Shown here piece after piece: positions 38,668-46,844 of a stretch of DNA of 64,000 bases (within the stretch, counting starts at the first letter, position 1; each line of letters opens with the position of its first letter). Source of the DNA: Desulfobacterales bacterium (GTDB lineage Bacteria; Desulfobacterota; Desulfobacteria; Desulfobacterales; UBA2174); assembly GCA_963668645.2 (NCBI GenBank), contig CAXXWC010000018.1, positions 512,001 to 576,000 on the forward strand. The letters run 5' to 3'. The notes beneath the pieces are model-generated. The model was not told where the DNA came from. It did not search any database and saw nothing but the letters and a program-made list of their open reading frames with translations. Both the position numbers and the translations under genes were made by a program.

Positions 38668-38721
38668 GCCCAACAATGCCAATTAACGCGGACGCAAAAA
38701 ACGCGCCGGTTATTGGCGGCG
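38668..38721 (+). other. attC site (left part), interrupted at G|TT by the RIT element; TTAGGC resumes at 41780
   Basis: GCCCAAC + GCCAATTAAC...GTTATTGGC imperfect stem + G. Confidence 0.8.
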
Positions 38722-38940
38722 AACCGCGCGGTAAGGTGCAAAGTTATGCGCAATTGGGAGAGGTGGTTCGGGTGAAGCGGCATATTTTTAGCGGATTAAA
38801 AAGGAAAATGACGGTCCATTAATGCTATTCTCTCTGTTTGGAAGAACAGATTTTCAAAAATACAATAAAATGTCAACAGTTCTCCATACAGAAACGGATT
38901 TCTGTTAAAAAATGCAAAAAGAATAATGACGAGGTATTTT

Positions 38941-39927
38941 TCATTCTATTTTGGGTCGGTTCCTGTTTTGAAAGCGCAGATTCAGCACTCCGGTGTTGAT
39001 AAGCTCTTTTACATAAACGACCGTTGGCAGTGTCTCGAGTGCTTGGCGGACCCTTTCCTGAGAGGGATGGATGTAGGGTTCGGTGCTGCGGGTTGAAGAA
39101 TGCCCGAGGATGCTCTGGATGATCAACACGTCGACCTGCTTGTCGTTGAGATGGGAAGCCAGGCTGTGGCGCAGGGTGTGGCAGGAGACGTTAAACGGCA
39201 GGTTCAGCCCTGAGTGGGTCATGATTTTTTTCAGATTGTCCTCCATGGTGCGGATAGCCAGGCGGTTTCCTTTTTTGGATACGAACAGGGCCGGAGTCAT
39301 CCAGTAGTTGAGGAACAATTGCCGGACGGCCAGGTAATGGCAGAGCGTTTCGACCAGCTCATCGTTGAGATGAAGGGATCTGGGCTTGCGGCCTTTACCC
39401 ATGACGTTGATCTTGCGGGATTCGAGGTCGATGGCGTTCAGATCCAGGCTGTGAACCTCACCTACCCGGAGCCCGAGCTGATACATGAGGGCGTAAACAG
39501 CGTATTCACGGATTCCCAGGACGGTTTTCGTGTCGATTGCGGCAAACAGGGTGTTTATCTGGTCATGGGTCAGGGCCTGGGGGCGACTGCGGTAGCCGGA
39601 ACGGATTTTCAGGACATCGTAGAAAGGCAGATCCTTTGCGCCCGGCGGGTCGCACAGCTTGAGAAAATTGCCGTAGCTTCTCAAGGAGAATATCTTGCGG
39701 TTGACAGAAGCGCCGCAGTTGCGCCGTTGCTTTTTCAGATAATACTGAAAGTCGATGACAGCCGGTCCGTCGATGGCGTCGTAACCGCCTGTATCGATGA
39801 AGTCCTTGAACAGATCCAGGTCGACGCGGTTGGTTTGCAGGGTCTGCTCGCTGAGGTCGTAGATCTGCCGGCGATAGTGGAAGAAGCGGTCGACGTGGCC
39901 GAAAAAGACGCCGGGTGTAACGCTCAT
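38941..39927 (-). CDS. Tyrosine recombinase (third gene of RIT)
   Basis: GLRVGE, HTLRHS, LGHS, Y in TEPYIH. Confidence 0.92.
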   Translation of the reverse strand: MSVTPGVFFGHVDRFFHYRRQIYDLSEQTLQTNRVDLDLFKDFIDTGGYDAIDGPAVIDFQYYLKKQRRNCGASVNRKIFSLRSYGNFLKLCDPPGAKDLPFYDVLKIRSGYRSRPQALTHDQINTLFAAIDTKTVLGIREYAVYALMYQLGLRVGEVHSLDLNAIDLESRKINVMGKGRKPRSLHLNDELVETLCHYLAVRQLFLNYWMTPALFVSKKGNRLAIRTMEDNLKKIMTHSGLNLPFNVSCHTLRHSLASHLNDKQVDVLIIQSILGHSSTRSTEPYIHPSQERVRQALETLPTVVYVKELINTGVLNLRFQNRNRPKIE

Positions 39928-43565: not shown

Positions 43566-43632
43566 GCCCAACAAATCACTGCACTGGATTTTTACTGCGT
43601 TGCGCTCCATAAAAAACCAGTGAGTTCAAACG
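43566..43632 (+). other. attC site (left part), interrupted at G|TT by a mini-RIT; TTAAAT resumes at 44300
   Basis: GCCCAAC...CACTGGATTTTTA/TAAAAAACCAGTG stem...G. Confidence 0.82.
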
Positions 43633-44299
43633 AACCGCGCGGTAAGATGCAAAGTTATGCGCAATTGGGAGGGGCGGTGTTCGGGTGAAGCGACATATTT
43701 TTAGCAGTTAAAAAAGGAGAATGACGGTCCTTTGATGAGATTCTCCCTGCTCGAGAGGATAGGTTTTCAAAAATACAATAAAATGTCAACAGTTCTCCAT
43801 ACAGAAACGGATTTCTGTTAAAAAGTTGAAAAGAATAATGACGAGGCATTTTTCATTCTCTTTGGGGTTGGTTCCTGTTTTGAAAACGCAGATTCAGCAC
43901 TCCGGTTTTGATCTCATGATAGGGTAGCTTGGCGGCGATATTTGGGGCGACGTGCCCATGCAGGCTCAGGAAGTGGTAAAATTACCGCAGGGTCCAGACA
44001 CGGGATTTTTTCACATGGACGGAAGGCCGTTTGAATTCACTAACAAAATCGGACAGATCCAAATAGGTGATGTCCGTAATGATTTCAACCCTGCGAATTT
44101 TCAGGAAACCACGAAATTCGTGCAATCGAATGGCCAGTGCCTGCTGGGAGCGCTGGGAGAAATTTGCAAGCCGGCAGTAGTCCAGGAACGAGGTGATGTG
44201 ACTTTGAAGCATGACGCCCTTTCCATATCATGGGATCAAGCTTCACCGTCAAACCCTTGATTTTCAACCCTTCCCCGTCCTCACTGCGGGGTTTGTTGG
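43633..44299 (-). mobile_element. Internally deleted RIT derivative (667 bp)
   Basis: Both ends homologous to 38722-39000 and 41390-41779; 3' end of the third gene fused to the 5' part of the first gene near 43912. Confidence 0.88.
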
Positions 44300-46844
44300 T
44301 TAAATGATAAATACGCGATTGTATTGTGCGTATTGCCGTGAAGACATTTCGAATGGTTCAAGCCTGCTAAAAGTATGGGAGATTTAGGTTGATAGATAAG
44401 GATATACCAACGCTTGAGCTGGACACTTTTGTAAGATCTGTAGGCGTAAACAGAGGCTCGCCCCACGCTCTCTTTTTAGGTGCCGGCGCTTCAATGTCCT
44501 CAGGTGTGCCATCTGCAAAATCATGCATTTGGCAATGGAAAATGTCTATCTTTTGTACGAACAACCCCGGCTTCGAAGAGCAGGTATCGGAAATATCACT
44601 TAAGGCAGTGCAAAACCGCATCGACCGGTGGCTTCAAGTAAATGGATATTATCCTGATAAAGGTGAAGATGAGTATTCCTACTTCATCGAGAAATGCCTT
44701 CCAATTGCTGATGACCGAAGACGTTTTTTTGAACCCTGGATTCGAAAGGCACGCCCACACGTAGGGTATCGACTGTTATGCCTTTTGGCCGAAGTGGGAC
44801 TATTCCGAAGTATTTGGACTACTAACTTTGATTGTTTGGTAGCTCGAGCCGCTTCAGAGTTTGACCTAACTCCGGTTGAGGTAGGGATCGATTCCAAAGA
44901 GAGAATATTCCGCCAGCCAGAGCGGAACGAATTGATGTGCGTCTCCTTGCATGGTGACTATCGCTACGATCCTTTGAAAAACACGAGCAAAGAGCTCCAA
45001 GCACAGGAAATTGAACTCAAAAATGCCCTAGTTTCGACGCTCAAGACACATTCTCTTGTTATAATAGGCTATAGCGGAAGAGACCCTTCAGTTATGGATG
45101 CAATACGAACAGCCGTTTTCCAGGAAAATGCGATGGGGAAAATATTCTGGTGCGGCTTTTCAGATGAACCTTCCAGAGATGTGGCAAGTTTGCTGATAGA
45201 TGCAAAGGAGAAGAAAAGACAAGTCTATTATGTCCCAGGCACAGCTTTCGATGACGTTCTGACACGGATAGCCCATCATTGCTTGGAAGGGAGCCACCTT
45301 AGTAGTGCGAAACAGATTCTTGGTGACTATGCTGAAAAAGAAAAATTACAGTTAAATGCGTTTTCCTTTCCACAAGGTGATCCAACCACACTTATTAAAA
45401 GCAATGCTTGGCCGATTGTATGTCCAACAGAAATGTTTGAGTTTCAGCTTCGTGAATGGCCAAATAAGCAAGTTTGGAAATGGATGTCTCAAAAGACAGC
45501 AGGACATCAGGTCGTTGCAGTACCTTTCAAGAAAGTCCTGGCACTTGGAACACTTGATGGTATTCGTGAAATATTTAGCGATCTAATTGATGGTGAAATC
45601 CAACGAGTGCCAATTTCCGATCAAGATATTCGTTACGAGGACGGGGCTGTTGTTAGCCTTTTGCGCCAGGCTTTGGTTCGAGCCATTGCCAGCAAGCGGG
45701 ACCTTTGTTCTGATGGAAGTCGGGTACTGTGGAAAAATGGAAAATACACGACAGAACGAGAGGGTGGCAACCCGTACGATGTCCACCATGCCGCACATCT
45801 TGCATTGCGTCGTATCGGCGGGCAGATGTACGTTACGATTGACCCGACCGTTCACTTTCCCGCTGAGAATTCGGATAACGAGAATGCGATTCGAAACATC
45901 CGAATGAGGATTCTAGGGTACCAGCACAACGATAAATTCAATAAGGCTCTGAACAATTGGAGGGGGCTGATTCTGACGCCAAATGAGCCAACTGAATTCG
46001 ATTTTCCAGTAAAAAGTGCCTCATTTCGATTCGTTATAAAGAGTGCCCCCGCTTTTGCATCCATTAGGCAACCGCGAAGAGGCTCAATAAAACTTCCAGA
46101 CGATTTTGGGCGACTTATTCACCACCACGGCTTTGAAATTCCAGAACAGAGCCTTCGGTTTAACGGTAGGGCAAGACATACCGCTACAGATACGCTTCCT
46201 TTGCGCGGACTTGCAACTCACGGACCCTTTGACCAAAGCTTTGTCCCACAGGCAGACGATGACCGAATCAGAGTAGCAGTTATATGCCCACGAGCAGAAG
46301 CCCCGTTTCTTGAAAAATTCCTATCAGAAGGATTACAGATACATAATCCACAACGCGGTGCTAAAGAAGAATACTTGGTTCCATACACAGGGTTTGAAAA
46401 AATTTTTCGCGTACCGGTAAAATTCCCAAGTCGTGGAGATCCTCTTTGGTACACAATTCCAGAGATTGATTCACAGCTTGATCAACGCTCTGGCGCTCTG
46501 GAGATGTCTCGCAAAATTCGAGAAGGTGTTTCATCGCTATCAGCAGCGGGTAGGTCAGTCGTTCTCTATGGAACCACAAAACGGTTGGATTCTGTAAAAT
46601 CAGTATGTTATCCGATTATTTTTGCCATACTTGATCATATTTTGCGATTCTCAAGGAGCCTGTGCTTTCGTTTTCCGGGGTGTCGGCTTTGCGTCTAACT
46701 CATAGAAAACACATGTAATGATTGTCATTTACGATAGATGGCTATCCTCTTTTTCGTTCTTGTCAAATCGTCCATTTCTTGATAATGTATTGCATATATG
46801 CCCGGTTGCGGCGATAACCTGCAATACTTTATCGGGAGGGCGAT

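Follow-up and report, generated by a model that had tools for sequence, protein, structure and literature searches.

A RIT-like three-recombinase element located at the G|TT crossover of integron attC sites in a Desulfobacterales genome and in its relatives

Recombinase-in-trio (RIT) elements consist of three adjacent, co-oriented and overlapping tyrosine-recombinase genes in which all catalytic residues are kept. They have been described as cargo-free units of ~3 kb with inverted-repeat ends that occur in several copies, together with truncated derivatives, per genome (PMC3414803; here and below, statements attributed to a PMC number or to Smyshlyaev 2021 refer to excerpts of those papers). 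According to the same excerpt, canonical elements have inserted into radC and into a transposase gene, and no convincing binding sites were identified. In this study, we analysed a 64-kb stretch of DNA from a Desulfobacterales bacterium (hereafter, the window), in which a 3058-bp element of this architecture and a 667-bp relative interrupt an integron cassette array. Comparison with the rest of the host genome and with two sets of relatives confirmed that the pattern is real and general beyond the window: the elements lie, in one orientation, at G|TT of the attC core (the bar marks the crossover). It is quite probable that they constitute a cargo-free family that inserts site-specifically into attC sites via a circle, with its own recombinases acting.

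The likeness to RIT elements was assessed against four canonical trios, carried by plasmids of Rhodococcus, Cupriavidus, Sphingobium and Phaeobacter. The R, K, HxxR, H and Y residues were invariant in the first, second and third recombinases of the element when these were aligned with IntI and canonical RitA, RitB and RitC. In the window, the gene overlaps measured 13 nt and 4-10 nt; those of relatives were 1-10 nt, mostly 4, and those of canonical RIT elements 4 bp. Likewise, the element was ~3 kb long, devoid of cargo, bounded by terminal inverted repeats (TIRs) and multicopy in the host genome; a promoter and terminator scan of it returned nothing usable. The third recombinase probably starts at an ATG at 39927, which would make it 328 amino acids (aa) long, the relatives' being 324-328 aa. 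It is made up of SAM-like and catalytic domains followed by a ~30-aa C-terminal tail. It resembled canonical RitC (330-332 aa; the Rhodococcus RitC is annotated as 254 aa) in length and domain layout, and its tail aligned with that of RitC, a protein characterised by an additional C-terminal helix. In contrast, the first protein, with 292 aa, had no counterpart of the ~110-aa N-terminal region of RitA, a protein of 400-412 aa with two core-binding domains (Smyshlyaev 2021). The canonical RitB proteins were 309-314 aa long.

All three element proteins had the Rhodococcus RitA as their best match, and the closest plasmid relatives of the first recombinase were all below 31% identity. In a tree, the element proteins formed three well-supported clades, with gene order conserved in the relatives. 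The second protein showed a weak grouping with RitC (83/90), no placement was obtained for the first and third, RitB was remote and the deep branches were weak, so that no one-to-one grouping with the RitA, RitB and RitC of the four trios was obtained. The first-pass annotation of this DNA had named the element a RIT subfamily. Its architecture fits that name; since neither a RitA/RitB/RitC pairing nor the RitA N-terminal domain was found, RIT-like is the safe label and is used here.

Within the window, the two insertions shared their ends, as had been proposed from the first reading of the sequence. The left ends aligned from AACCGCGCGGTAAG onward and the right ends up to GGGGTTTGTTGG, with mean column identities of 84% and 94% over the left-end and right-end regions, respectively, and homology ceased at these boundaries. 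Both insertions had CG as their left flank and TTA as their right flank. Since the left flank and the element both end in G, the position of the junction is ambiguous by this one base (G|TT or |GTT) and by no more. The 667-bp copy corresponds to positions 1-279 and 2665-3058 of the 3058-bp element, retaining the first 76 codons of the first recombinase gene, and is therefore an internal-deletion derivative.

Both window elements, in the same orientation, separated the final G of an attC from the TT with which the next cassette opens, which places them in the core (R') of the site. Removing them in silico left ...GGCGGCG|TTAGGC and ...CAAACG|TTAAAT. With TTAGGC added, the sequence 38668-38721 (60 nt in all) folded into a hairpin with z = -5.0 relative to shuffles, and the half-sites of cassettes 1 and 3 were matched by both covariance models described below, with 49.1 and 46.6 bits in model R1 and 28.2 and 28.3 bits in model R2 (E about 0.01 for both in R2). 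Excision thus yielded attC sites, in agreement with the earlier proposal. In addition, the start of a cassette was exactly complementary to the inverse core (R'') of its own attC for cassettes 1, 3 and 4. Specifically, G plus TTGGGC at 34721-34727 has its exact complement in GCCCAAC at 38668, and the cassette 3 start TTGGGC at 42991 has its own in GCCCAAC at 43566; cassette 5, which starts with TTATGC at 50365, has the matching GCATAAC at 50873. It had also been claimed that each restored core matches the inverse core of the next cassette. This was exact for TTAAAT, which pairs with ATTTAAC at 50311-50317, and incomplete for TTAGGC, which reached 6/7 both with ACCTAAC at 42835, where no model match was obtained, and with GCCCAAC, the start of the modelled attC at 42939-42996.

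A second full copy, 96% identical to the window element, was found elsewhere in the host genome (C19:380390-383451). It occupied a third, different attC with the same junctions as the window copies (flanks ...TTTGCAGCG| and |TTAGGC), ~5 kb from intI remnants. Insertion at the same core nucleotide, noticed first for the two unlike attC sites of the window, therefore extends to a third. These junctions also bear on the idea that an ordinary gene cassette carries the trio as its cargo, or that the junctions are assembly artefacts at repeats. The element does sit in cassette arrays, and many relatives are on ~3-kb contigs that break at the element ends. However, a cassette starts with TTRRRY and ends in its own attC, whereas the element starts with AACC and contained no attC match in the window copy. 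Moreover, the same boundaries recurred with different flanks inside long contigs (the window, C19 and loci with 6-kb flanks). Either version of this idea is scarcely credible.

The identity of the flanks was examined with two covariance models. Model R1 was built from 12 third-gene-end half-sites, from the inverse core to G and without downstream bases, and 9/9 of the pairs given by RNAalifold showed compensatory changes. In the host genome, R1 had 14 matches (150 candidates scored). Three of them were the element-occupied sites, and nine of the 14 lay 1-14 kb from intI genes or remnants (C13, C22, C3 and C19); the strand of R1 was the expected cassette strand relative to intI in 4/4 host integrons. 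All 11 uninterrupted host matches were directly followed by TT, bases that are absent from the model, and in the occupied sites the element stood exactly where the uninterrupted sites have TT. In the loci of the first set of relatives, introduced below, R1 gave 73 matches. Twelve adjoined the element (nine seeds plus L027, L030 and L033), while 51 of the other 61 were followed by TT, three sites being counted twice (L052 and L057 overlap). Except in L065 and L077, array matches and the first gene were on opposite strands. R1 detected no attC beside six canonical RIT loci.

Model R2 was built from 23 uninterrupted attC sites only. In its alignment 84.1% of cells were paired, compared with 65.6% in shuffles (0/500 were as high) and 28-42% with the structure slid, and compensatory changes occurred in 13/18 pairs. 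R2 recovered five element-adjacent half-sites at E <= 1, including both window half-sites. With filters off over 16 loci, L029, L046, L065 and L030 had E < 1, L002 had E 1.3, L062 had E 5.4 and ten were missed. The hallmarks of attC were present: an inverse core ending in AAC and a core GTT at the ends of an imperfect hairpin, with compensatory changes. Three hand-made attC finders, based on regular expressions or arm folding, missed known sites and gave 123-174 matches scattered over the genome; no Rfam attC family reached threshold; and a sequence-only hidden Markov model of uninterrupted attC sites was insensitive, placing 8/23 flanks above the 1% control score. Judged by structure, array context and the cassette rule, most flanks are attC sites.

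In order to define the target across relatives, we used two sets of loci. The first contained one genome per species (94 matches, of which the best 80 were kept, giving 77 loci), most of them metagenome-assembled genomes (MAGs) that bear the label Desulfobacterales or Deltaproteobacteria and a few of them from other phyla. The second, a replication set, contained the best 80 of 426 matches in metagenome contigs. Distinct flanks served as a proxy for independent events. A single-sequence nhmmer search with the window ends found 16 third-gene ends and 0 first-gene ends in the first set and was replaced by profiles of both ends, which located 26 and 71, respectively. About a hundred relatives in the two sets shared the target, and the window pattern recurred across ~125 distinct first-gene-end flanks elsewhere (66 + 59). 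In the first set, 67 first-gene-end flanks had at least 8 nt, 66 of them distinct; TT opened 60/66, against a background of 9.7%, and A was the third base in 50/66. The metagenomes gave similar results, with 57/59 distinct flanks opening with TT and 54/59 with TTA. At the third-gene end, CG closed the flank in 24/26 cases in the first set and in 38/39 distinct cases in the metagenomes. An AAC-anchored hairpin with z <= -3.5 was found in 12/20 distinct third-gene-end flanks of at least 39 nt in the first set. Among the metagenome flanks of this length, 15/34 had an R1 match, 15/34 passed the folding test and 23/34 did either, while random control CG|TT sites of the same metagenome loci passed the folding test in 2/60 cases. 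Orientation was identical in all insertions, and insertion was always at R' and never at the symmetric R''. The cassette rule was followed too: among 18 first-gene ends with an attC match further along the array, the R'' of the next attC corresponded to the flank exactly in 10 and with at most one mismatch in 12 (3% and 19% in the control). Fragments of intI were present within 6 kb in L053 and L078.

A rival account would dispense with attC specificity altogether: the element would recognise the short motif CG|TTA or any hairpin, and the excess in attC would come from purging elsewhere and tolerance in arrays. The consensus of the flanks, C, G | T, T, A, is indeed short, attC was not recognisable in a minority of the third-gene-end flanks, and targeting by hairpin plus motif exists in group IIC introns (PMC8876359, PMC3001079). 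However, only 40 of the 3231 CGTT sites in the first-set loci (1.2%) were ends of detected uninterrupted attC sites, so that CG|TT targeting alone would put ~1% of insertions in attC, whereas at least 60-68% of insertions adjoined attC-type hairpins, against 3% in the control. Neutral intergenic CGTTA sites were plentiful in the loci (668), orientation was strict and the downstream flank followed the cassette rule. We therefore regard this account as highly unlikely. The earlier proposal that the subfamily recognises attC and parasitises cassette arrays is supported by the three host insertions, the TT flanks of both sets, the hairpins and the orientation; homologues did not lie mostly outside attC sites, and the excised junctions did not fail as attC.

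Joining the two ends of the element would give a TIR, a 6-nt spacer and a second TIR, a predicted 11-6-11 layout typical of the core sites of tyrosine recombinases such as Xer/dif and Cre/lox. Across relatives, the TIR consensus at the third-gene end was AACCCCGCAGT. The spacer varied by lineage: TGTTGG was present in 29 flanks from genomes and 37 from metagenomes, followed by TATGGG, TGGGGG, TGAGGG and others. It was independent of the flank, four copies in one MAG having the same spacer and different flanks. Tn554, SE and GInt elements likewise carry several tyrosine recombinases, insert in a site- and orientation-specific manner without target duplication and have a 6-bp unit at one end (PMC10214605). 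In Tn554 and SE, this unit is a copy of donor-flank sequence (PMC10214605); here, the spacer tracks the lineage and is unrelated to the CG-ending flanks, and therefore does not have that origin. In addition, the element had no fourth conserved protein, in contrast to these elements. The left junction was G|AAC in the window copies, in C19 and in the relatives. No homology between element and target was found in the six bases either side of the crossover, and no reciprocal product, which would have the spacer at the opposite end, was ever seen. These two observations make a single strand exchange or a single-stranded substrate likely. We also considered the right end as an attC mimic (a CAAC...GTTG hairpin) and rejected this, given that the hairpin and the spacer GTT were not conserved in other lineages.

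Altogether, these features are consistent with a mechanism in which the element excises as a circle whose joined ends would form the 11-6-11 core site. The circle would then integrate, in one orientation, into the R' core of an attC between G and TT, the phosphodiester used by IntI, without duplication or loss of target bases, the reaction being catalysed by the element's own recombinases. Deletion derivatives that keep only the ends could be mobilised in trans. Integration probably proceeds by one strand exchange, after which replication resolves the junction, or on an attC that is single-stranded or folded, as when attC recombines with attI. Insertion would take the GTT from the attC, thereby welding the neighbouring cassettes and the element into one unit.

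The resemblance to attC x attI recombination raises the question of which enzyme acts. In both systems, a tyrosine recombinase would act at G|TT in R', the two cores R' and R'' are told apart, there is little homology between partner sites and the product fits a single strand exchange. IntI might therefore catalyse the insertion wholly or on the target side, the trio serving only for excision and circle formation or joining IntI in a mixed synapse. The elements occur where attC arrays, and hence IntI, occur; the host carries two intact intI genes (C13 and C15) and several intI remnants; the R1 strand agreed with intI orientation, as described above; and the spacer of the commonest lineage, TGTTGG, contains GTT. 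However, IntI products have G|TT at both junctions, whereas the left junction here is always G|AAC, and the element-side site is G|AAC with 11-bp inverted repeats and not a GTT core. A crossover at the spacer GTT would shift the boundary 4 nt inward, contrary to observation, and spacers lacking GTT (TATGGG, TGGGGG and TGAGGG) gave the same target junction. No intI was found in the 64-kb window that holds the array. The IntI-specific insertion is absent from all three recombinases, which scored 58-75 bits against an integron-integrase cut-off of 265 bits, and all three recombinase genes have remained intact and conserved from lineage to lineage. Of the two options left by the first-pass annotation, own recombinases or IntI, the left junction thus makes the element's own recombinases the most likely agents, and an involvement of IntI seems unlikely.

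The IntI-like choice between R' and R'' could be explained by sequence, with CG before GTT at R' and TT at R'', so structure recognition is only possible. As a tentative and rather doubtful extension, the trio might represent a second, independent set of tyrosine recombinases for folded single-stranded attC, one that exchanges a single strand at the phosphodiester used by IntI and does without the insertion by which IntI deals with extrahelical bases, or might act with IntI in a mixed synapse. If so, integron integrases would not be alone in carrying out structure-specific single-strand recombination, and one set of subunits on the 11-6-11 site with another on the hairpin target could explain the three-protein puzzle of RIT elements.

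The host genome contained two full copies and one derivative, plus fragments on C14 and C21 and, at C21:1470920, a right-end fragment with TTCGCC after it. No element copy was present in any of four same-genus genomes, which consequently offer no orthologous empty site. Sequencing runs were examined as assembled contigs, which speak for presence and not for absence, depth or rare forms. In one run (X6), which carries the same organism label as the best-matching runs of the window, a contig joined an element-family right end plus TTA to the start of cassette 5 at 50365, with its loose end at 41782; in the assembly, the site 50364|50365 is single-copy and element-free. This junction is only a hint of recent mobility. 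A run of another organism contained a derivative with breakpoints similar to those of the 667-bp element (joint 38999 to 41421), and in organism B an attC resembling 38672-38721 was followed by TTGAAC.

Several observations weigh against the interpretation of an attC-specific family that moves by its own recombinases. R1 was seeded from element-adjacent sites, and the independent R2 recovered fewer half-sites; the lower R2 scores are attributable to the absence of R' from half-sites. Many loci are MAGs of related organisms. First-gene-end flanks without TT amounted to 6/66 and 2/59, two of them sharing GCACCA. Third-gene-end flanks without an attC by our criteria numbered 8/20 in the genomes (L050, L043, L039, L045, L085, L027 with 19.8 bits in R1, and L044 and L048 at contig ends) and 11/34 in the metagenomes; some of these were cut by contig ends and several of the 11 resembled long attC sites by eye but were not counted. 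A BLAST search with 400-nt flanks found no orthologous or paralogous empty site in the host genome, its only hit being a 91%-identical uninterrupted attC (C21:162262-162319) followed by TT. Neither a joined-ends circle junction nor a tandem copy was found in all loci and the host genome; the circle-junction search, a loose pattern, gave 205 chance-level matches, of which 0 joined both ends. The X6 junction is a single assembled contig. The crossover is the exact cleavage point of IntI, G|TT of R' and never R'', which leaves room for IntI on the target side. Finally, Table 1 of PMC10214605 lists both the target specificity and the movement of RIT elements as not tested.

Other mobile elements are known to target attC. 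IS1111-attC elements have a DEDD-type transposase and occupy a different position within attC. They belong to the IS110 family and, like the element described here, target attC and may disable it (Tetu & Holmes 2008 and Post & Hall 2009, cited in PMC11616780); the present element instead carries three tyrosine recombinases. Group IIC-attC introns likewise target attC, opposite to cassette transcription (PMC3001079), an orientation shared by the genes of the present element. They consist of a ribozyme and a reverse transcriptase, neither of which was found in 38722-41779. The RIT-like elements would thus be a third kind of attC parasite, one that shares both its enzyme superfamily and its crossover point with the integron itself. 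Our literature search returned no paper linking RIT or three-tyrosine-recombinase elements to attC or integrons (Ricker 2013 and the supplements of PMC3414803 were outside the search).

To our knowledge, RIT-type elements are widespread and their mobility has never been reproduced. A poorly understood kind of element gains its first clearly defined target: the target is defined in this clade, whereas the specificity of canonical RIT elements is given as not tested in the excerpt of PMC10214605. With a defined target, a predicted 11-6-11 site, natural derivatives and a cultured host with apparently recent copies, the clade makes the question of why three recombinases are needed a testable one. 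For the integron, each insertion abolishes an attC and fuses cassettes, in this array with defence-type cargo among them. Element copies provide dispersed homology inside arrays, which should shape cassette mobilisation, and interrupted attC sites are expected to escape integron annotation, so that cassettes would be mis-delimited. The features of the window are listed in Table 1.

Table 1. Coordinates of the RIT-like element, its derivative and the cassettes around them in the window
Feature	Position	Strand	Details
Cassette 1	34722-38721	+	starts TTGGGC after G34721, ends in its own attC; open reading frames 34796-36280 (Metallophos) and 36277-38595 (HATPase_c_3)
attC of cassette 1	38668-38721	+	R'' GCCCAAC to crossover G; R' remainder TTAGGC at 41780-41785
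RIT-like element	38722-41779, 3058 bp	- (genes antisense to cassettes)	boundaries fixed by three copies with different flanks
TIR, third-gene end	38722-38732		AACCGCGCGGT; 11 bp, 10/11 positions matching the other arm
Third recombinase gene	38941-39933	-	330 aa from GTG; PF00589, E 9e-37
Second recombinase gene	39924-40826	-	300 aa; PF00589, E 3e-21
First recombinase gene	40814-41692	-	292 aa; PF00589 (Phage_integrase), E 7e-27
TIR, first-gene end	41763-41773		ACCGCGGGGTT
6-nt spacer TGTTGG	41774-41779		outside the TIR, first-gene end only
Cassette 2	41780-42990	+	starts TTAGGC; open reading frame 41797-42831 (no family found); attC 42939-42996, R2 60.2 bits
Cassette 3	42991-43632	+	starts TTGGGC; open reading frame ending 43526; attC 43566-43632
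Non-autonomous derivative	43633-44299, 667 bp	-	TIRs 43633-43643 and 44283-44293; spacer 44294-44299
Cassette 4	44300-50364	+	starts TTAAAT; SIR2-APAZ-pAgo gene split by an IS-like insert
attC of cassette 4, uninterrupted	50311-50370	+	R'' ATTTAAC at 50311-50317; crossover 50364|50365

Further observations concern the ends of the elements. GCACCA in place of TT was seen at the first-gene end of L005 (host C14:75918) and of L074 (L074:4885). The loose end at window position 44299 in runs X6 and X8 is a close variant of the GCACCA junction, and the runs contain a diverged second copy of the L005-type junction. The explanation that these junctions derive from a crossover at the spacer's own GTT was not supported, as the inverse core of the downstream cassette in L005 did not fit. 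A recurrent fragment (L064:5911-6500, L068:5886-6510, L074:5886-6510 and similar) comprised the first-gene end and codons 1-142 of the first gene, followed by a common stretch of ~110 nt ending in GACACC, beyond which the flanks diverged and were not attC-like. Several such fragments occurred per MAG, with no third-gene-end repeat downstream.

Among the metagenome loci, L116:7826-7893 held an element whose first protein was 60% identical, in an attC nearly identical to the one in host C19. In L065:2895-3602, two third-gene ends faced each other 583 nt apart, each adjoining an attC, and the two attC sites were oppositely oriented, as if elements had rearranged with one another. In many relatives, R1 matched weakly (16-23 bits) within the second gene, on the gene-sense strand and at a conserved position, as in L146:2992-3052 and L027:1443-1503; the window copy lacked this match.

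In cassette 4, the open reading frames 44389-46698 and 49394-50287 corresponded to positions 4-709 and 736-1030, respectively, of the PADLOC pAgo model PDLC02384. The pAgo gene was split by a high-GC insert of ~2.7 kb with one open reading frame of 863 aa (46718-49309), which had only weak similarity, to IS256 and IS481 transposases. Further along the same array, an unrelated group II intron fragment (51697-51949, +; RF02005, 82.5 bits) lay on the cassette strand, and remnants of a reverse-transcriptase reading frame followed it to ~52200. Directly upstream of the array, two open reading frames (28997-30250 and 30765-32102) matched Clostridium_P47 (PF06597; E 2e-24 and 5e-23), and about four tandem copies of a unit of ~26 nt, CCCGTGCCCCTTATCCCAGGTCATCC-like, occupied 34130-34260, upstream of the first cassette boundary.

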